NCBI GenBank assembly: GCA_947085185.1
Contig: CAMTVK010000006.1
Coordinates: 34,839-98,838, forward strand
DNA from: Candidatus Fraserbacteria bacterium
GTDB lineage: Bacteria; Bipolaricaulota; Bipolaricaulia; RBG-16-55-9; DRXL01
Reading direction: 5' to 3'
Length of the DNA stretch: 64,000 nucleotides
The position numbers and the translations under genes are program-made. Below the pieces are notes generated by a model that saw only the letters and a list, made by a program, of their open reading frames with translations, did not search any database and was not told the origin of the DNA. Shown here in pieces: positions 8,880-56,766 of this stretch. Position 1 is the first letter of the stretch, and every line of letters starts with the position of its first letter.

Positions 8880-11428
8880 GTCCCTGTCTTCATGCAGCAG
8901 TGTTTATATTTCTTCCCTGAGCCGCAGGGGCACGGGTCATTGCGTCCGACTTTGTGCGGGGCGCGGCGCGGCTGGGCCTTGGGCTTCTCTGGCTGGGAGT
9001 TTCCCGCGATCGCTGTGATCTCATCGTGGCGATAGCTCACGGACTCGATCCGTGCCGGCTGTCCCGGCTGCGCCGCGACGATCTTCAGCTGGGGCTTGAT
9101 GAGATAGCTCACGATCTGTTCTTCGATCCGCCCGAGCAATTCTTGGAAGAGCTGGAACGACTCGCGCTTGAATTCTAGCAACGGGTCGCGCCCCGCATAC
9201 GCGCGCCAGCCGATCACATCTTGGAGTTCATCAAGGGCGAACAGATGCTGCCGCCAGTTCTCGTCAATGAGATGTAAGATCATATAGCGGGCCAGGTGGG
9301 GGAAGGCCCCGCCGAGTCGTGCCGCCTGTGCGTGATAGTTTTTCAGCAAAAAGTCCAGAATCTTCGTGCGGGCCTCATCGGGCGAGAGCCCCGCGACTGT
9401 GAAGTCTAACGGGGCGTTCTGGAAGCCCGCAAGCTCTTTGTGGAGGCTCTCATCGTCGCGCTCCGCCCCAGAGAGATAGCGCGCGATCAGGGTCTCTGCG
9501 TAGCTTTCGATCAGGCCGGTGAGATAGTCGTCTAAGGCGCTCTCTTGTGGTGCGCTTCCCAGCAGAAACCGTTCGCGCAGACTATAGATGGCTTCGCGCT
9601 GGCGCGCCATCACCTGATCGTATTCGATGAGTCTTTTTCTGATGCCAAAGTAGTGAATCTCCACGCGCTTTTGCGCGTTACGGATCGCTTTGGTCAGCAT
9701 GGGGTGTTCGAGGGCTTCGCCCTCGATCATGCTCTTCTTCACAAACGAGAGCAATTTGCTGTCGCCGAAGAGTCTAATTAAGTCATCTTCGAGGGAGACG
9801 TAGAACTGGGAGCTGCCGGGGTCGCCTTGGCGGCCGGCGCGCCCGCGCAGTTGATCGTCAATTCTGCGGCTCTCGTGGCGCTGCGCCCCGATGATATGCA
9901 GTCCGCCCAGCTCCACTACCCCTGCGCCGAGCTTAATATCTACCCCGCGTCCGGCCATGTTGGTCGCTACGGTGATCGCGCCCTTCTGGCCTGCGTCTTT
10001 GATAATCTCTGCTTCGCGCTCATGGTGTTTGGCATTGAGCACGTTGTGGGGCAGCCCACGGCGAAAAAGCAGTGTGCTCAAATACTCAGATTTTTCTATG
10101 GAAGTGGTGCCGATGAGCACCGGGCGCCCCAGCTCGTGCAAGCGATAGGTCTCTTCGACAATAGCATTGAACTTCGCTTTCTCAGTCGTAAAGAGCTTAT
10201 CGGGCAGGTCCTGACGGATCATGGGCTTATGGGTGGGGATAACGACCACAGAGAGCCCGTAGATCTGCTGAAATTCTTCTTCTTCGGTCTTCGCTGTGCC
10301 GGTCATGCCCGCTAATTTCTTATAGAGCTTAAAATAGTGTTGCAGGGTGATGGTCGCGAGAGTCTGCTGCTCTTTGCGGATCTCCAACCCTTCTTTGGCT
10401 TCGATCGCTTGGTGGAGCCCGTCGCTCCAGCGGCGGTCGGGCATCAAGCGCCCCGTAAATTCATCAACGATGATGACGCGCCCGTCCTTGACGATATAGT
10501 CGCGCTCTCTCTTATAGAGATGGAGTGCGCGCAGGGCTGTCTCCAAGTGTTTTAACAGATCGACGTGCTCTGGGGCGTAGAGATTGTCGACTTTTAAGAT
10601 CTCTTCGGCCTTCTTGACGCCGACCTCGGGGGTGAGGTGCACCCGTCGGGCTTTCTCGTCTATTTCGAAGTCGACGCCCTTCTGAAAGCGTGGGGCGATC
10701 GCCGCGAACTTCTTATAGAGCTTAATAGTCTCTGACGTGCTGCCAGAGATAATCAAGGGCGTGCGGGCTTCGTCAATTAAGATGTTGTCTATCTCGTCTA
10801 TGATGGCGAAATCGAGCCCCGTCTGGACTCGTTGCTCCCGCGAGATCACTAAATTATCTCGAAGATAGTCAAAGCCAAATTGGGTATTTGTCCCGTAGAT
10901 AATATCGCACTGATAGGCGTGCTTCCGCTCTTCGGGGGAGCTTGTCTCTTGGAGGAGTCCGACTTTCAGCCCGAGGGCTTCATAGATTGGGCCCATCCAA
11001 TGGCGATCGCGCTTGGCCAAGTAATCGTTGACCGTGACGATGTGCACTTTCCCAGCGAGCGCATTGAGATAGGCGGGCATGGTGGCGACGAGCGTCTTGC
11101 CCTCGCCGGTCTTCATCTCGGCGATCTTGCTCTTATGAATGACGATGCCACCGATGAGCTGGACATCGAAGGGGCGCAGCCCGATCGTACGTCGGGCGGT
11201 CTCGCGCACCACCGCGAACGCCTCGGGCAAGAGATCGTCGAGGGTCTCGCCCTGGGCGAGTCTATCTTTAAACTCGTCGGTCTTGGCCCGCAATTGATCG
11301 TCGGAGAGCTTTTGTATTTCTGGCTCGAGTCTGTTAATCTCATCGACGATGGGCTGGAGCCTTCTGAGTCGCTGTTCGTTGGTCTCGCCGAAGATCCAGT
11401 CTACGGCGCGCTTGAGAAAGTCTGCCAT
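8876..11428 (-). CDS. secA: Preprotein translocase ATPase SecA
   Basis: DEAD-like motor domains, preprotein cross-linking domain, C-terminal zinc-binding CPCGSGKKYKHCC. ATG at 11428 (MADFLKRAV...) preferred; GTG at 11437 is the alternative. The stop overlaps acyP's stop convergently. Confidence 0.95.
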   Translation of the reverse strand: MADFLKRAVDWIFGETNEQRLRRLQPIVDEINRLEPEIQKLSDDQLRAKTDEFKDRLAQGETLDDLLPEAFAVVRETARRTIGLRPFDVQLIGGIVIHKSKIAEMKTGEGKTLVATMPAYLNALAGKVHIVTVNDYLAKRDRHWMGPIYEALGLKVGLLQETSSPEERKHAYQCDIIYGTNTQFGFDYLRDNLVISREQRVQTGLDFAIIDEIDNILIDEARTPLIISGSTSETIKLYKKFAAIAPRFQKGVDFEIDEKARRVHLTPEVGVKKAEEILKVDNLYAPEHVDLLKHLETALRALHLYKRERDYIVKDGRVIIVDEFTGRLMPDRRWSDGLHQAIEAKEGLEIRKEQQTLATITLQHYFKLYKKLAGMTGTAKTEEEEFQQIYGLSVVVIPTHKPMIRQDLPDKLFTTEKAKFNAIVEETYRLHELGRPVLIGTTSIEKSEYLSTLLFRRGLPHNVLNAKHHEREAEIIKDAGQKGAITVATNMAGRGVDIKLGAGVVELGGLHIIGAQRHESRRIDDQLRGRAGRQGDPGSSQFYVSLEDDLIRLFGDSKLLSFVKKSMIEGEALEHPMLTKAIRNAQKRVEIHYFGIRKRLIEYDQVMARQREAIYSLRERFLLGSAPQESALDDYLTGLIESYAETLIARYLSGAERDDESLHKELAGFQNAPLDFTVAGLSPDEARTKILDFLLKNYHAQAARLGGAFPHLARYMILHLIDENWRQHLFALDELQDVIGWRAYAGRDPLLEFKRESFQLFQELLGRIEEQIVSYLIKPQLKIVAAQPGQPARIESVSYRHDEITAIAGNSQPEKPKAQPRRAPHKVGRNDPCPCGSGKKYKHCCMKTGT

Positions 11429-11464: not shown

Positions 11465-13702
11465 TCAGCGCGGTTGGGCAAGCAAGTCCTTGAGCTGTGC
11501 TTCCATCTGGGCGAGCGCGGCGGCTTGGGCTTTGAGCCGAGTGAGCTCATCGGGATCGGTGAGCCGGCGGCTGCGCTCGATCTCTCCGATGCGTCTGAGA
11601 ATCTTCTCTTTGAGCTGGGCGATGACGGCCAGACCGCGCTCGAACTGGGCGCGGGCGGCCTCAAGTGCGCCGCGCTCGCGATGCAGCATCCCCTGCACTA
11701 AATACGCTCGGGGATAGTCGGGATGCTCTTGCAAAAATTTTGCTAACTCACCCCACACCAGCGTGCGGTCCCCTTGAGAGACGAGCACGAGCACCCGCTG
11801 CATAAATTCGGCTTCCAAACGCATAGCGGGTTCTGGGTCCAGGCGCAAGAGCTTCTGCAAGTGCTCGCGAGCGCGCTGGGTCTCCCCCAGGCGTAAGTCC
11901 AGTTCGGCTAACTGAATATACGTGTTCTCTACGGGATAAGACTTAAGAGAGCGCTCAAAGAGCTCGCGAGCGCGTTGGAGCTCCCCTTGCTCTCCGTAGA
12001 TGACCCCTAGATAATAGAGAGCTTTCCCGGGCGCGATCGCCAAAGCGACGCTGCGCTCTAGCGCGATGCGCGCCAACTCATACCGAAGATTATTGATTTC
12101 AGCTTCCCCTTCATCGAGAGCGATGTCCGCTTGCCAATCGCGATACGCAAAGACCGAGACAGTCACAGCCAACACAAGAGCCGTGACACCCACAGCGATC
12201 TTGGCAGACGATCCGAGCGTCACCGTGGGTGCCGGGCCGAGCAGCGGGCGCGTATAGAGCAGACTGATCAAGAGCACGAGGTTGAGCTCCGATGCCGGCA
12301 GGTGCAACGGAAAGCTCACGAGCGCATCCGTGAGGAACGCGACGAGACCTGCGCCGAGCGCCACCACCCAAAGCCGGCGCTCAGGGGACTCTGACGAGCG
12401 CACGAAGCGATGCGCTCTCGCTATCAGGGTGCCCGCAAATATCCCGAGAGCTACCAGGCCGATCAGCCCCAGCTCGGCGATCAATTGCACGTAGTCGTTA
12501 TGGGCTTGGATCGCCCGGGGCAGATAGAAATTATACTGCTGTCCCAGCGGGGTCTCCTTGAAGCGCGCTTTATATTCTAAGAATTCGACTTTATAGTCCC
12601 CCAAGCCCACCCCGACAAACGGGTGCGCCTTGAGCATTTCATAAGCGATCCACCAGTTCCAGGTGCGCGCGATCCCGGAGTTCTCCTCCCAGAGGCGCTG
12701 AAAGAATTTGGCGATCTGTTCGATAGGTGACGCCTCAAGGGGGGCCGCGCGGCCCAGAAGGGAGTTCAGCGGTCCCGGCGGCGACTGCAGCCAGACCACA
12801 AGCGCCAAGAGAATCACGACAGCGAGCACCCAACGGCGTTGGCTCGCTATCGCTGATCTGAGCTGAAAGATCAGCATCCCCCCAAAGAAGAAGATCACAG
12901 AGGCCAAAGCAGCGAGATACGCCCCGACGGAGTTTGCTGCCACAAGGGCCGCGACCATCACAATTAAGAGGGCTACAAGCCCAAGCCGCACCACGCGACT
13001 CTGTGTCATCACCGAGAGAAAGACCCCGGGCACGAGCAGATGCGCCAAGAACCCCGCCAGATAATTGGGATTCCCAAACGTCGAGATCATCGCCGGGCTG
13101 CTCCCTAAAAACCCCGGCGGCCCCGGCAATCGCCCATAATACTGCAGGAGCCCATAAACTGAAGCAATGGCCGCCGACAGCAAGAGCGCGCCCAGAAGAA
13201 TCTTTATGTCGCGCTCACTCTCGACGGTGTTGACGATGAGCACACCCAACAGCCCAAAATAGATCAGCCCGACGAAGCTTATCAGACTTAAAGCGAGATT
13301 CTCAGCATTGATCAGCGAGAGTGCACACGCCCCCAAGACTCCCAGAGCCGGCCAAGCAAGCTGTGTCACGCTGAGCTCGGTCTGAGCACGCAAGAAAATC
13401 TCTAAAGCCCATAAGACTACTAACGTTGAGATGCCCCCATAGAGCACGGCGCTTTTAGTGTAGCCGTACTCGGTGTTGGGCAGATAGATCACAATGGGCA
13501 CGGCGAAGACGAGCGCGACTAAGAGCCAGAAGCGCAGCCGGGGAAGCGACACTAATCGCAAGCGCGCTGCAGCGCGCTCCAGGAGCGCCCGTGCGACCTC
13601 TCCCCCGGCCCCTCCCCTAAAGAGGGAGGGGAGCTTCTTCTCTCTAGGAGAGATTCTGGAGTACTTAGGTTGCTTATAGGCTTTCCGTGTTCTCCGGGCC
13701 AT
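11465..13702 (-). CDS. O-antigen ligase (Wzy_C/WaaL-like) polytopic membrane protein with C-terminal TPR repeats
   Basis: About 12 TM helices followed by a ~250-aa TPR-like region (AYRDWQADIALDEGEAE...). ATG at 13702 (MARRTRKAYKQ) chosen. The track ORF begins at an upstream TTG (13723) inside the repeat element. Confidence 0.65.
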   Translation of the reverse strand: MARRTRKAYKQPKYSRISPREKKLPSLFRGGAGGEVARALLERAAARLRLVSLPRLRFWLLVALVFAVPIVIYLPNTEYGYTKSAVLYGGISTLVVLWALEIFLRAQTELSVTQLAWPALGVLGACALSLINAENLALSLISFVGLIYFGLLGVLIVNTVESERDIKILLGALLLSAAIASVYGLLQYYGRLPGPPGFLGSSPAMISTFGNPNYLAGFLAHLLVPGVFLSVMTQSRVVRLGLVALLIVMVAALVAANSVGAYLAALASVIFFFGGMLIFQLRSAIASQRRWVLAVVILLALVVWLQSPPGPLNSLLGRAAPLEASPIEQIAKFFQRLWEENSGIARTWNWWIAYEMLKAHPFVGVGLGDYKVEFLEYKARFKETPLGQQYNFYLPRAIQAHNDYVQLIAELGLIGLVALGIFAGTLIARAHRFVRSSESPERRLWVVALGAGLVAFLTDALVSFPLHLPASELNLVLLISLLYTRPLLGPAPTVTLGSSAKIAVGVTALVLAVTVSVFAYRDWQADIALDEGEAEINNLRYELARIALERSVALAIAPGKALYYLGVIYGEQGELQRARELFERSLKSYPVENTYIQLAELDLRLGETQRAREHLQKLLRLDPEPAMRLEAEFMQRVLVLVSQGDRTLVWGELAKFLQEHPDYPRAYLVQGMLHRERGALEAARAQFERGLAVIAQLKEKILRRIGEIERSRRLTDPDELTRLKAQAAALAQMEAQLKDLLAQPR

Positions 13703-13728
13703 TCCGTGTTCTCCGTGATTCAAAAATA
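13685..13728 (-). repeat. Copy 1 of ~45-nt CACGGA-hexamer array element (minus-strand sense TGAATCACGGAGAACACGGAATGGCCCGGAGAACACGGAAAG)
   Basis: Four CACGGA/CCCGGA hexamers spaced 9-10-9 bp, spanning the stop of the upstream CDS and the ATG of the downstream CDS. About 85% identical to the copy at 50827..50872. Confidence 0.5.
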
Positions 13729-34743: not shown

Positions 34744-34991
34744 AACTCCCCCGTGATCTTGGTGGAGAAGAGCTGGCACAGCTTTTGGCCCGCTATGGAT
34801 ATCGAATCGTGCGGCAGACAGGAAGTCATATGCGACTCCTCTCTTCCACCAAAGATGTTGAGCACCGAGTTACTATACCAAGACATAAACCCCTTCGAGT
34901 AGGCACCTTAAGCAAAATTCTCAAAGAAATAGCATCCTATCTGGAGATCGATTACCAAGAATTTTTGAGAGAATTGTTCCAAAAGGACTAA
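34740..34991 (+). CDS. hicA: HicA-family mRNA interferase toxin
   Basis: 83 aa with the GYRIVRQTGSHMRL...IPRHKPLRVGTLSKILKE pattern characteristic of the HicA/YcfA double-stranded-RNA-binding-like fold. Confidence 0.65.
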   Translation: MKLPRDLGGEELAQLLARYGYRIVRQTGSHMRLLSSTKDVEHRVTIPRHKPLRVGTLSKILKEIASYLEIDYQEFLRELFQKD

Positions 34992-49663: not shown

Positions 49664-50589
49664 AAATACTCAAGCGCTTGTTGAAGAATCCGCTCTCTAT
49701 GACCGGCTTGGTTTTGGTCTTCTTCTTCGCGGCTGTGGCCATCGCCGCGCCCTGGCTGGCCCCGCCGGATAACCCTGATGAGCCCTATCGCATCACCCGC
49801 TGCGGCTACACCCATATGCCCCAGCCGCCCAAAGTTGATAATCCTTTGGAGGGGATCTGGAAGATCATCACCAGACAGGCCCATATCTGTGAGGTCAATC
49901 CCTTCGGCCTCATCCAAAGTCGCGACATCTACTACGGGGTTGTGTGGGGGACGCGCACGGCCTTCTTCGTGGGGCTGGTCATTACGGGATTAAATGTCTT
50001 GATCGGCTTACTTATCGGCTCGATCGGGGCTTACTTCGGCCGCTGGGTGGATGAGCTCTTGATGCGTATCACCGATATCTTTCTAGCCTTCCCCTTCCTC
50101 GTGGCGGCCATCACTTTGGCTGCCGTGCTGCAACCCACGATAGGCCGTGGGTTGATCACCGCCATGATCGCATTGATCGCCTTCGGCTGGATGAGCTACG
50201 CGCGACTCATCCGCGGGGATATCCTTTCTTTGAAAGAAAGGGACTACGTCTTGGCGGCCCGTGCCTTGGGGGCCCCTCATCACCGCATCATGCTGCGGCA
50301 CATCATCCCAAACGCGATCTACCCCACCCTGGTCGTCGGCTCGATGGACATCGGTTCTTATGTGTTGAGCTTTGCAGCGTTAAGTTTTTTGGGCCTGGGA
50401 GCTGAAGTGGGTTACGCCGACTGGGGACAGATGATCTCTTTTGCCCGCGACTGGATCCCCAGGCTCAGCGATTACTGGTACATTGTTGTTTACCCCGGCA
50501 TGGCTATATTATTATTTGTGCTCGGCTGGAATTTGATAGGCGATGCCTTCAGAGATATTCTCGACCCGCGCCTGCGGGGGCGTGTCTAA
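49660..50589 (+). CDS. ABC transporter permease (DppC/OppC-like)
   Basis: Six TM helices. EAA motif LAARALGAPHHRIMLRHIIPN. Translationally coupled to the upstream permease. Confidence 0.85.
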   Translation: MKILKRLLKNPLSMTGLVLVFFFAAVAIAAPWLAPPDNPDEPYRITRCGYTHMPQPPKVDNPLEGIWKIITRQAHICEVNPFGLIQSRDIYYGVVWGTRTAFFVGLVITGLNVLIGLLIGSIGAYFGRWVDELLMRITDIFLAFPFLVAAITLAAVLQPTIGRGLITAMIALIAFGWMSYARLIRGDILSLKERDYVLAARALGAPHHRIMLRHIIPNAIYPTLVVGSMDIGSYVLSFAALSFLGLGAEVGYADWGQMISFARDWIPRLSDYWYIVVYPGMAILLFVLGWNLIGDAFRDILDPRLRGRV

Positions 50590-50590
50590 G

Positions 50591-50788
50591 CTATTCTTTC
50601 TTCTCTTCGAGGGCGATGATCTCCATCCCGTTGTAGTACCCGCAGTTGAGACAGACGCGATGGGGGAGCTTGGGCTCATGACAGCGCGGGCATTCGTTGA
50701 TCGTGACCGGAGTAAATTTATAGCTGGCCGCACGATGCATGCGCTTCTGTGAACTCGATCGTCTGTACTTTGGTTGTCCCTGACCCAT
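50591..50788 (-). CDS. rpmF: 50S ribosomal protein L32
   Basis: 65 aa with a basic N-terminus (PKYRRSSSQKRMHRA) and zinc ribbon CPRCHEPKLPHRVCLNCGYY. Confidence 0.85.
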   Translation of the reverse strand: MGQGQPKYRRSSSQKRMHRAASYKFTPVTINECPRCHEPKLPHRVCLNCGYYNGMEIIALEEKKE

Positions 50789-50826
50789 ATAAAAACTCCT
50801 TCTCGATGAGAATCACGGAAAACTGC

Positions 50827-50872
50827 TTTTCCCCGTGCTCTCCGTGGGCTCATTCCGTGCCTTCCGTGATTC
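50827..50872 (-). repeat. Copy 2 of ~45-nt CACGGA-hexamer array element (minus-strand sense TGAATCACGGAAGGCACGGAATGAGCCCACGGAGAGCACGGGGAAAAG)
   Basis: Lies between the dtd stop and the rpmF start, in the same orientation relative to the downstream gene as copy 1. An 11-nt perfect inverted partner (GAATCACGGAA) sits ~45 nt further on. Confidence 0.5.
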
Positions 50873-50880
50873 AGATTCTA

Positions 50881-51345
50881 TCAAATTGGATTCGTCTTTG
50901 CAACCGGCGGGCTCTCGAGGATGAACGTCACTGGGCCGTCGTTGACTAAAGAGACCTTCATGCGTGCCCCAAAGATCCCGGATTCGACCTTCACCCCACC
51001 GCGACGGAGCTCTTGCAAGAAGAGCTCATAGAGCACGCGGGCGTGCTCTGGAGGCGCTGCCGCGTCGAAGCTGGGGCGCCGCCCTTTGAGCGTACTGCCA
51101 TAGAGCGTAAACTGCGAGATGACTAAGATCTCGCCCTGCACGTCTTTGACGGAGCGATTCATCTTGCCCGCGGCGTCCTCGAAGATCCTCAGCCCCACAA
51201 CTCGATCGGCCAAGAAGATCGCATCGTGCTCAGAATCGCCCTTGCCCACCCCAAGAAAGACTAAGAGCCCTGGGCCAATCTGCCCCACAATGCTCCCGTC
51301 AATCTCTACAGACGCTGCCTTGACGCGCTGCAGTACAAGGCGCAT
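50881..51345 (-). CDS. dtd: D-aminoacyl-tRNA deacylase
   Basis: MRLVLQRV...SQFTLYG...NDGPVT, the canonical Dtd motifs. 154 aa. Confidence 0.9.
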
Positions 51346-51350
51346 GAGAT

Positions 51351-51863
51351 CTATTGAGATGCAGCTCCGTTGGAGCTCCCCATCACGAACCCCAAAATGA
51401 AAGCAGCAAGGCCCACCAATAGGATAGCTCCAACATCAGTTTTGTAAGCGTCTTCGCTTTCGAGTTTCTTAGATATATTGTAAAAATCACGAGCTTCTTC
51501 GCTGGTGAGCAGCTCGCCCTGCTGAGTGCGAGCGACATAAGTCTTGAGACGCTCCAACTCGGCTTGGGAAATTGGATTGCCAGGTTTGACTCGGCTCAAA
51601 AGCTGATTGATCGCGTCTTGATGAGAAAACTCTTGATAAGGCCTGTTGATGGCTTGTATCTCGGCAGATGTGAATAGTTTCTTTGTAGAGAGTATGTTAA
51701 GGAGTATGCCATAGGAGTTCATTTGCGCTTGAATACTCTTTAAGCCGTTGGCAAGGTCAGCCTGGAGAGAGCCGAGCTTGCGCCCTATCCCAACCCAGAG
51801 CGTGATAAACCCTAAAAAGAGTAAGCCCAAGTTTACCAAAGTCAGTATTTCATTGAGCTCCAT
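51351..51863 (-). CDS. Hypothetical protein with N- and C-terminal TM helices
   Basis: [23 protein letters not shown]...central soluble coiled region...[19 protein letters not shown]. Internal ATG chosen so as not to overlap the divergent gpmI start. Confidence 0.4.
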
Positions 51864-51948
51864 AGATCCTCCAGCAATCAATAGTTTGCCCAATTTGCCT
51901 GAGAAAGTCAAGCTTGCAGACACTCGCTCTGAGGCTCTATAATAAGCT

Positions 51949-53457
51949 ATGCCCAAGCGCCCGTATGTGCTCGTCATTCTCGATGGCTGGGGGATGCGCA
52001 CAGAGCCCCAAGGGAATGCGATCGCCGCCGCGAAGACCCCAAATTTCACGCGCTACTGGCGGAGCTGCCCCCATACCCTCGTGCGCACCGATGGACGTTT
52101 CGTGGGGCTGCCTGACGGCCAGTTTGGCAACTCCGAAGTCGGCCATCAGAATCTGGGCGCTGGACGCATCGTCTTCCAGACTTCAACGCGCATCTCCAAG
52201 GCGATCGCCGATGGGAGCTTCTTCACCAATAGAGCCCTCTTGGGCGCTCTCGCGCACGCGTCCCGACTCCATCTGATGGGGCTGGTCAGCGACGGCGGTG
52301 TGCATAGCTGCTTAGACCATCTCTTTGCCCTGATAGAATTGGCTCGGCGCGAACACGTCTACGCTCTTTATATTCACGCGTTCCTAGACGGGCGCGACAC
52401 CCCCCCGACCTCCGGAGCTCGCTATGTCCAGCGAGTGCGCGAGGTCTGTGCACAAAGAGGGGTCGGACAGATCGCAACGATCATGGGCCGATATTGGGCC
52501 ATGGATCGTGACAATCGCTGGGAGCGCACCGAGAGAGCATATCGCGCTCTGCGCTTCGCCGAAGGGCACTGTGATCCAGGACCCCCAGAAGATGCCGTCG
52601 CACGAGCCTATCAGCGCGGTGAAACCGATGAGTTCCTCCAGCCCATCATCCTCGATCCTGAAGGGGCCATTCGTGACGGCGATGCCGTCATCTTCTTTAA
52701 CTTTCGTCCCGACAGAGCTCGCCAGATCACCCGCGCCTTCACGGAGAAAGACTTTGCGCACTTCCAGCGCGGGCCGTGCCCCAATATAGAGTTCGTCACG
52801 CTCACCCAGTACGATCAAAGCTTTTCTGTGCCAGCAGCATTCCCCACCGAAGAGCCCCTTAAGAATATCTTCGCTGAGGTGCTCAGCCGCGCCGGGCTGA
52901 CGCAGTTTCGTATTGCCGAAACAGAAAAATACGCGCACGTCACGTATTTTTTTAATAACGGGCGCGAAGCTCCCTTCCCCGGCGAAGACCGAAAACTCAT
53001 CCCCTCGCCCAAAGTCGCTACCTACGATCTCAAGCCGGAGATGTCCGCGTATGCAGTGACCGACGAAGCTATCAAACGGATCACAAGCTGTCGCTATGAT
53101 TTTGTTCTGATCAACTATGCCAATCCCGATATGGTGGGGCACACCGGGGTCTTTGAAGCAGCCGTCAGAGCCGTCGAAGCCGTTGACGAATCTCTTGGGC
53201 GTGTGGTCGAAGCGACCCTCTCTGTCAACGGAGAGATTTTAGTGACGGCCGATCACGGGAATGCGGATATTATGCGAGACGAGCAGGGCCAACCGCACAC
53301 GGCGCACACGCACAGCCCCGGCCCACTTATTTATATTGGGCCACGCGCTGTAAAATTCTCTGACGGTGGAGCGCTCTGCGACATCGCCCCAACTCTCTTA
53401 GAGCTTATGGGACTTGAACACCCACAAGAGATGACCGGGCGGAGTTTGATAGAATAA
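51949..53457 (+). CDS. gpmI: 2,3-bisphosphoglycerate-independent phosphoglycerate mutase
   Basis: VLVILDGWG, catalytic Ser region (NSEVGHQNLGAGR) and ADHGNAD. 502 aa. Confidence 0.95.
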   Translation: MPKRPYVLVILDGWGMRTEPQGNAIAAAKTPNFTRYWRSCPHTLVRTDGRFVGLPDGQFGNSEVGHQNLGAGRIVFQTSTRISKAIADGSFFTNRALLGALAHASRLHLMGLVSDGGVHSCLDHLFALIELARREHVYALYIHAFLDGRDTPPTSGARYVQRVREVCAQRGVGQIATIMGRYWAMDRDNRWERTERAYRALRFAEGHCDPGPPEDAVARAYQRGETDEFLQPIILDPEGAIRDGDAVIFFNFRPDRARQITRAFTEKDFAHFQRGPCPNIEFVTLTQYDQSFSVPAAFPTEEPLKNIFAEVLSRAGLTQFRIAETEKYAHVTYFFNNGREAPFPGEDRKLIPSPKVATYDLKPEMSAYAVTDEAIKRITSCRYDFVLINYANPDMVGHTGVFEAAVRAVEAVDESLGRVVEATLSVNGEILVTADHGNADIMRDEQGQPHTAHTHSPGPLIYIGPRAVKFSDGGALCDIAPTLLELMGLEHPQEMTGRSLIE

Positions 53458-56689: not shown

Positions 56690-56766
56690 TGGTGGGCCCG
56701 GCAGGATTCGAACCTGCGACCAACCGGTTATGAGCCGGCCGCTCTGACCCCTGAGCTACGGGCCCC
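56690..56766 (-). tRNA. tRNA-Met (anticodon CAT; elongator or Ile2-lysidine type), CCA encoded
   Basis: Minus-strand sequence GGGGCCCGTAGCTCAGGGGTCAGAGCGGCCGGCTCATAACCGGTTGGTCGCAGGTTCGAATCCTGCCGGGCCCACCA. It folds as a cloverleaf with a G1-C72 pair, so it is not the initiator. Anticodon loop CTCATAA. Confidence 0.85.

Follow-up and report, generated by a model that had tools for sequence, protein, structure and literature searches.

Transcribed hairpins of the repetitive extragenic palindrome (REP) type act generically on mRNA stability and translation, and Correia elements, which may coincide with promoters or supply them, are substrates of RNase III. Arrays of short asymmetric motifs (6-13 nt), direct, inverted or dispersed, are known from the omega-repressor heptads (WATCACW) of pSM19035 and from the stoperators of cluster A mycobacteriophages. 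Here we describe a hexamer array in a 64,000-nt stretch of DNA from Candidatus Fraserbacteria bacterium (positions 34,839 to 98,838 of contig CAMTVK010000006.1; hereafter the window), located between the co-directional genes dtd and rpmF on the minus strand. The array, made of CACGGA hexamers and bracketed by an inverted repeat, had been proposed to form an autoregulatory leader of ribosomal protein L32, the product of rpmF. Comparison with related sequences leads us to consider that the site is probably a partly deleted copy of a palindrome dispersed in Bipolaricaulota and not a dedicated L32 control element.

The spacer between dtd (50881-51345, minus strand; an open reading frame (ORF) for a D-aminoacyl-tRNA deacylase of 154 aa matching Pfam Tyr_Deacylase) and rpmF downstream of it (50591-50788, minus strand; an ORF of 65 aa, with Pfam Ribosomal_L32p matched on the identical protein at loci L023-L025) is 92 nt long. 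It contains GAATCACGGAA and TTCCGTGATTC, a perfect inverted repeat of 11 nt (100% complementary) whose copies occupy 50810-50820 and 50862-50872 in plus-strand numbering, 41 nt apart. Among 5000 shuffles of the spacer that preserved its dinucleotide composition, only two produced a perfect inverted repeat of at least 11 nt. On the rpmF-sense (minus) strand CACGGA occurs at 50868-50863 (H1), 50859-50854 (H2) and 50846-50841 (H3) and is followed by a degenerate H4, CACGGG (50837-50832); the inverted form TCCGTG is present once, at 50819-50814. The 5' arm of the inverted repeat (50862-50872, minus strand) is the terminus of the element, GAATCACGGAA, and holds H1, while H2 to H4 (50832-50859, minus strand) all remain unpaired in the 41-nt loop. 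The rpmF-sense RNA folds with -28.5 kcal/mol (z -2.43; 4 of 200 shuffles fold as well) into a 14-bp stem in which the 11 Watson-Crick pairs of the repeat are joined by two G-U pairs and an additional pair, and the 3' end of the hairpin is 21 nt before the rpmF ATG. The original prediction was thus sound in its description of the site: a perfect 11-bp repeat does bracket the array, one base away from the positions first given (50809-50819 and 50861-50871), a stem-loop can form in the rpmF-sense RNA, and it ends about 20 nt before the L32 start codon.

The array was also correctly recognized as the second copy of a repeated element. A profile of the element's arm finds exactly two minus-strand copies, and no others, in the window. 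CACGGA is not enriched overall (28 matches window-wide versus 31 expected), and clusters of three or more hexamers occur only at the rpmF site and at copy 1 (13684-13717). The arm profile, a hidden Markov model, matches the rpmF site at 50875-50833 (E = 5.5e-9). Together with an alignment to complete orthologous copies it defines a truncated palindrome of 63 nt at 50810-50872 (minus strand) with four hexamers in one arm and one in the other (4+1), which extends to about 50807-50875 when weakly conserved terminal bases are included.

The wider family was sought with the 20-mer common to both window copies, TGAATCACGGA-RRR-CACGGAATG, by exact matching against one genome per GTDB species. Five of the 22 loci obtained come from four metagenome-assembled genomes (MAGs) of Candidatus Bipolaricaulota, and in all five the 20-mer is one arm of a full, imperfect palindrome of ~90 nt. 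A metagenome scan with GAATCACGGARRRCACRGAA added at least 120 loci, from which a family consensus was built: a palindromic, non-coding repeat of ~95 nt that starts TTTGAATCACGGAA and carries in each arm four CACGGA hexamers spaced 9, 12-13 and 9 nt, reading TTTGAATCACGGAAGGCACGGAA-(2-4)-GCCACGGA-RRR-CACGGAA, then a variable loop and the inverted complement. Each arm comprises two 22-nt units. Most elements are 87-96 nt long, from GAATC to GATTC; shorter forms with four and two hexamers (4+2) measure 63-72 nt, and the overall range is 63-100 nt. Termini of the form TTTGAATCACGG...CCGTGATTCAAA are conserved, so that the family shows the terminal inverted repeats, small size and lack of coding capacity of miniature inverted-repeat transposable elements (MITEs).

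Copies are dispersed, as in MITEs. The arm profile recognizes 245 arms, corresponding to 196 elements, in 0.93 Mb of retrieved DNA, a figure that does not represent genomic density because this DNA is centred on pattern matches. Six to seven arms occur within 4.5-5.3 kb at L039 and L127, compared with two elements in the window, and L043, L070, L079 and L100 place several copies along one 670-kb contig. Across the metagenome loci (at least 120) elements adjoin unrelated genes, including clpP, toxin-antitoxin genes, genes for IPTL-CTERM surface proteins, PAPS reductase and others. Often an element immediately precedes the ribosome-binding site of the second gene in a closely packed co-directional pair. 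The commonest Pfam families among 134 non-redundant ORFs neighbouring the elements (loci L026-L145) are the IPTL-CTERM sorting motif (11), RTX repeats (5) and PIN (3). Dense element clusters are seen amid genes of toxin-antitoxin type (HicA, PIN, Uma2/PD-(D/E)XK).

An element is often found no more than a few dozen bases from the beginning or end of a metagenome contig (L027, L028, L035, L036, L044, L072 and others), and many contigs stop inside one. The repeat probably fragments Bipolaricaulota assemblies, and copy numbers in MAGs are likely to be underestimates. At gathering thresholds Rfam matched only tRNAs in the window and ten loci, and relaxing the limit to E values up to 10 gave, for the element, chance matches to eukaryotic miRNAs and snoRNAs far below threshold. 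A tRNA-Met (CAT) at 56690-56765 (minus strand) is the only Rfam or ARAGORN match in the window. The searchable literature on the motif and on repeats of Bipolaricaulota or Acetothermia held nothing relevant. With neither an Rfam match nor a match in that literature, the repeat family appears to be undescribed.

The history of the rpmF copy was read from thirteen orthologous dtd-rpmF spacers outside the window's strain-level lineage, part of which were retrieved through the dtd protein to avoid the ascertainment bias of an element pattern. Homologues of the window's dtd and PAPS-reductase-family proteins at 79-90% identity carry the names Candidatus Bipolaricaulota, Bipolaricaulia or bacterium HR07, which places the host in that phylum. 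One dtd protein (P0014, 86% identical to that of the window) is labelled Candidatus Caldarchaeum sp.; since it falls inside the Bipolaricaulota dtd clade, its contig is probably mis-binned. Eight loci among the matches to the element pattern represent the orthologous spacer (dtd 82-90% identical and complete on the contig in 6 of the 8; L32 91-95% identical), and all have a full palindrome with four hexamers in each arm (4+4) at the same position. Within the set of thirteen, 4+4 palindromes are present in L048, L059, L100, L134, L118 and L091, which came from the element pattern, and in L149 and L152, which were retrieved with the dtd protein. The dtd protein also gave L160, which has a 3+3 form, and four spacers with no element or a barely recognizable remnant: L146 (47 nt), L151 (60 nt), L156 (74 nt) and L158 (45 nt). 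The remnants include TCCAGGATTC in L146 and AAAGCTCAGAAGCC in L156, and the four spacers look like cases of secondary loss or decay. In a neighbour-joining tree of dtd and L32 every element-less lineage is sister to an element-bearing one, which implies at least four independent losses. The simplest reading of these sequences is one ancestral insertion in the dtd-rpmF spacer followed by those losses, and the comparison thus indicates that a copy was already in place in the common ancestor of the clade.

The 63-nt 4+1 form, in turn, is restricted to strain-level relatives, namely the window and L023-L025, whose L32 proteins are identical. Orthologues read GTTTTCCGTG-CTTTCAGYTCTCTTCCGTGCTYTCCGTG-ATTC where the window reads GTTTTCCGTG-ATTC, that is, GTTTTCCGTGATTC. 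According to the alignment, ~28 nt of the right arm were deleted in the window lineage between direct TTCCGTG repeats, which fused the inner hexamer H4' to the terminal H1'; the 3' arm of the inverted repeat, TTCCGTGATTC (50810-50820, minus strand), is this fusion as judged from the orthologues. The ancestral pairing of H1 with H1', H2 with H2', H3 with H3' and H4 with H4' was replaced by pairing of H1 with the fused hexamer, leaving H2 to H4 unpaired. The 11-nt repeat brackets the array because the deletion moved the element's own terminal repeat next to the loop.

The position of the element relative to transcription was assessed from promoter-like sequences. A sigma-70-like promoter candidate for rpmF occupies 50875-50903 (minus strand), with a -35 box TTGCAA (50903-50898), a 17-nt spacer and an extended -10 region TGATAGAAT (50883-50875), in which TG precedes the -10 hexamer TAGAAT (50880-50875). 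The TGA inside TGATAGAAT is the dtd stop codon, so the candidate overlaps the last codons of dtd. It was the one minus-strand site in a consensus promoter scan, which found two sites versus 1.1 expected, so that a lone match means little. The pattern TTGC(A/G)N-17-TGNTANNAT is nevertheless kept in 15 of the 15 orthologous loci compared, the four element-less ones included, while the rest of the spacer varies freely. Given this conservation, rpmF is probably served by a promoter of its own that lies within dtd. Its predicted start of transcription, ~7 nt past the -10 hexamer at about 50871-50867, would be at the left edge of the element, and the hairpin probably lies within the rpmF 5' untranslated region (UTR), at or near the 5' end of the mRNA. 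On the other side a Shine-Dalgarno sequence, GAAGGAG (50796-50802, minus strand), is located 7 nt past the hairpin and 7 nt ahead of the ATG, and its GGAG core is kept in the orthologues. Since the promoter-like site is just upstream of the hairpin and not downstream of it, the earlier placement of the hairpin in the rpmF leader is plausible, with a start site that is a predicted one.

Copy 1 (13681-13723, minus strand), identified by the arm profile, is a solo left arm with hexamers H1 to H4, H3 being degenerate (CCCGGA), and has no partner arm. A PAPS-reductase-family gene takes its stop codon from the TGA of the arm's terminal TTTGAATC, and the ATG after H2 (13702-13700) is the likely start codon of a downstream membrane protein of the Wzy_C/TPR type. 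H1 and H2 thus stand just 5' of the start codon, and H3 and H4 encode part of the N-terminus MARRTRK. The orthologues L161-L163 have the same arrangement, and gene callers put the start at that ATG. In L161 and L163 the hexamers H1, H2 and H4 show no change, against a difference of 41-50% at 4-fold degenerate sites. L164 has a different N-terminus and no recognizable arm at this locus, and is ambiguous as an empty site. The solo arm folds no better than its shuffles (z +0.63). A bias in the orientation of solo arms with respect to flanking genes (34 versus 8) fell to about 24 versus 12 when one arm was kept per flank cluster, and was not relied on.

Several observations weigh against the view that the rpmF site is simply the decaying remnant of a mobile palindrome. 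Mobility of the family is inferred from its dispersed distribution only. Target-site duplications were not seen: the composition of 171 non-redundant element ends is unbiased beyond position -5, and full elements showed no flanking direct repeats. The TG...CA terminus rule was looked for at element ends and not found. No transposase family is common to two or more of the 134 neighbouring ORFs, considering the 25 commonest of 102 matched families; no RAYT transposase stood out among these ORFs; and neither the dtd-rpmF spacers nor the copy-1 locus yielded a clean empty site. If transcription starts at A50867, within the predicted range, the first five bases of the stem would be absent from the transcripts of this promoter. 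Mean pairwise differences among the eight orthologous 4+4 copies are also uneven: hexamer columns differ by 5% and other arm columns by 16%, compared with 30% in the flanks, 41% at the 4-fold sites of dtd and rpmF and 50% in the loop. The pattern used to collect six of these eight demands an intact H1-H2 pair; this raises the apparent conservation of those 20 nt alone and accounts for part of the hexamer value, but not for the remaining hexamers. The degenerate H3' (TTCAGT), which does not pair with H3, is likewise conserved.

This constraint does not appear to act on base pairing. For 19 full copies without redundancy the covariation term of RNAalifold was +0.3, with a double change in 1 of 28 pairs and most pairs invariant. 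In 23 co-directional contexts the sense strand folds better than its complement in 7 and worse in 14, so that the family as a whole shows no sign of selection on RNA structure; on these two grounds such selection was rejected as an explanation. What is conserved is the sequence and not the pairing, in a pattern in which a copy is either well kept or lost. Conservation at the level of the hexamer sequence argues against a purely neutral relic and equally against a purely structural RNA. It suggests that the family does something or is actively homogenized, and points to a hexamer-specific partner or to homogenization between copies.

These data bear on three other explanations of the rpmF site. 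An L32-responsive leader, in which the stem-loop would mimic the L32 site on 23S rRNA and repress rpmF translation, accords with a stable hairpin in a probable 5' UTR, 7 nt from the Shine-Dalgarno sequence, and with the conservation of the arms at the dtd-rpmF locus in several lineages. Absence of the structure from orthologous rpmF leaders had been set beforehand as the observation that would refute such a leader, and this is what the comparative alignment of fifteen orthologous spacers gave: the 4+1 hairpin of the window is shared by L023-L025 alone, four orthologous leaders are without an element, and the others have a different hairpin, mostly the longer 4+4 palindrome and in L160 the 3+3 form. 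The stem is thus specific to one lineage and born of a deletion, the element is also found at many non-ribosomal loci, RNAalifold detects no covariation, and no Rfam leader family matches, all of which makes L32-specific autoregulation highly improbable. A terminator or attenuator ending the dtd transcript is just as improbable. The strong stem-loop 9 nt past the dtd stop codon would suit this role, but the stem is followed by TCATCGAG with no T-run, and a terminator scan of 50500-52100 found no terminator-like site. Moreover, the element is downstream of the conserved promoter-like site, and family members often directly precede the ribosome-binding site of the next gene in tight co-directional pairs.

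The third explanation is that the hexamer arrays are sites for a trans-acting factor, either a DNA-binding or a hairpin-recognizing protein, with the rpmF copy serving as an operator, a roadblock or a factor-dependent RNA element. The divergence values favour it, because conservation of the hexamers exceeds that of the intervening paired spacers threefold and that of 4-fold sites eightfold, and conservation without covariation is that of a sequence and not of a pairing. It also agrees with the organization of the arm as two 22-nt units, with the unchanged H1, H2 and H4 of the partnerless solo arm, with the start of the element right after the -10 box (the rpmF copy spans about +1 to +60) and with the occurrence of the same hexamer in arrays in other phyla and phage contigs. 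However, neither the element ends nor the 134 neighbouring ORFs pointed to a candidate factor, most of one arm is missing from the window copy and its H4 is degenerate, and four lineages do without the element. The conservation itself has other possible causes in the solo arm, where H1-H2 are at a ribosome-binding site and H3-H4 are codons, and is subject to ascertainment bias on H1-H2 in 6 of the 8 orthologues. We therefore consider a role as factor-binding sites unlikely for the rpmF copy, and retain as the preferred reading a partly deleted copy of the dispersed palindrome.

Under this preferred reading, the rpmF promoter would overlap the dtd stop codon and transcription would start at or within a few bases of the left end of the element, which would be transcribed as the beginning of the rpmF 5' UTR as well as in any read-through from dtd. 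The transcribed element could then fold into the stem-loop, whose end is 7 nt ahead of the Shine-Dalgarno sequence. Its likely effect would be one generic to 5'-proximal or intercistronic hairpins, such as protection of the mRNA 5' end or provision of a processing site, or possibly no effect, and L32-specific feedback would not be involved.

Hexamer arrays are also seen outside Bipolaricaulota, in Planctomycetota, Gamma- and Betaproteobacteria, Bacteroidales and phage-like contigs. The 20-mer genome scan recovered palindromes of CACGGAA repeats in Rhodopirellula (L003), Noviherbaspirillum (L011), a Bacteroidales MAG (L013), two Actinobacillus species at the orthologous lemA-TPM spacer (L006, L007) and Wenzhouxiangella (L018), the last with four arrays in 8 kb. 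In these six loci the arms are tandem CACGGAA 9-mers, and their ends and spacing differ from those of the Bipolaricaulota family. Some matches to the 20-mer ATCACGGARRRCACGGAATG outside Bipolaricaulota (L004, L009) resemble ordinary gene starts, with a GGAG Shine-Dalgarno core and the final ATG as start codon; the sequence downstream in L009, read from the flank by eye, appears to encode an N-terminus resembling a signal peptide. Part of the background of ATCACGGARRRCACGGAATG may thus be sequence of the ribosome-binding-site type.

In viral contigs of IMG/VR, an inverted-pair pattern of the hexamer matched 3 loci versus 0 for a permuted hexamer. The triple-array pattern matched 88 loci versus 62 and 101 for two permuted controls, and the tandem CACGGAA triple array was accordingly dismissed as a special feature of viral contigs, since its raw count falls between those of the controls and tandem 9-mers as such are common. 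CACGGAA loci differ from the permuted controls only by their inverted-pair and multi-copy dispersed patterns. The phage-like contigs L179, L189, L191 and L201 have four to six co-oriented, nearly identical copies per ~10 kb. These four, with L178 and L240 (all IMG/VR, GC content 65-69%), contain three to six co-oriented, nearly identical copies per locus (5.8-12 kb) of GTGCC-CACGGAACA-CACGGAAGA-CACGGAAGCCGGAG. Such copies are found at gene ends and junctions, and the five L191 copies checked share a frame on the gene strand (..ASVSSVCSVG..); they may be coding tails or regulatory sites. Inverted (CACGGAAYA)3 arrays surround inner segments of 20-230 nt in L181 (3704-3813 and 4407-4512), L168 (9007-9301), L172 (3263-3519) and L196 (~9950-10057), and L181 has the same inner segment in both orientations. 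These arrays look like MITEs with hexamer-array terminal repeats. CACGGA arrays might as a whole be sites for a widely distributed, putative sequence-specific factor, a mobilizing enzyme or a regulator, and the palindromes one branch of a class that crosses phyla; we regard this as a doubtful, speculative reading. If it were true, L32 synthesis would be coupled to that factor through the copy at +1 of the rpmF promoter.

The analysis removes a candidate L32 leader and illustrates that deletion within a repeat can mimic a purpose-built regulatory hairpin. Hexamers at orthologous sites remain nearly constant even where synonymous sites are close to saturation, with no covariation, target duplication or visible transposase, a combination that points to a putative trans-acting partner. 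The family probably breaks metagenome assemblies and supplies stop codons, start codons and 5' UTRs at gene boundaries, which makes it relevant to the annotation of Bipolaricaulota MAGs.

Among known systems, ribosomal-protein leaders such as those in Rfam (L10, L20, L21, L31, S15) resemble the window site in that a ribosomal protein gene has a structured element placed after its promoter and ahead of its Shine-Dalgarno sequence. Unlike them, the family is not gene-specific, is not conserved across orthologues, shows no covariation and has no Rfam match. Omega-repressor and stoperator arrays share with the family that the motif itself is the conserved unit, a resemblance to be treated as a lead only; the family, whose cognate binding protein is putative, differs from them in being chromosomal and palindromic with spacings of 9 and 12-13 nt. 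Other recognizers were considered (CsrA GGA sites, DnaA boxes, parS/NBS half-sites, the sigma-54 -24 element, Mu/Tn7-type 22-bp end sites and Rho rut sites), and none fits.

Correia elements (CREE/NEMIS), the MITEs of Neisseria, are palindromes of ~100-150 nt located beside genes and co-transcribed with them, which places a hairpin in the 5' UTR or in intercistronic RNA, and in these elements as in the family, full-length and internally deleted forms coexist. They have, however, 26-nt terminal inverted repeats, a TA target duplication and an IHF site, whereas the family has hexamer-array arms, no duplication that we could see and no sequence similarity to them. Like the family, REP sequences and REPINs of Enterobacteria and Pseudomonas are short, non-coding, high-copy and strictly intergenic, often between co-directional genes near stop codons, and their copies persist vertically at orthologous sites and are lost in some lineages. 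REPINs, moreover, are inverted doublets that form a long hairpin in intergenic DNA without target-site duplication, as is found here. The REP unit, however, is an imperfect palindrome of 20-40 nt with a 5' GTAG and has a RAYT (Y1 transposase) as partner, whereas the arm of the family consists of four direct CACGGA hexamers with no GTAG, and no such partner was seen among the ORFs neighbouring its elements. Although the family departs from the defining features of each, REP/REPIN sequences and Correia-type elements are its closest described kinds.

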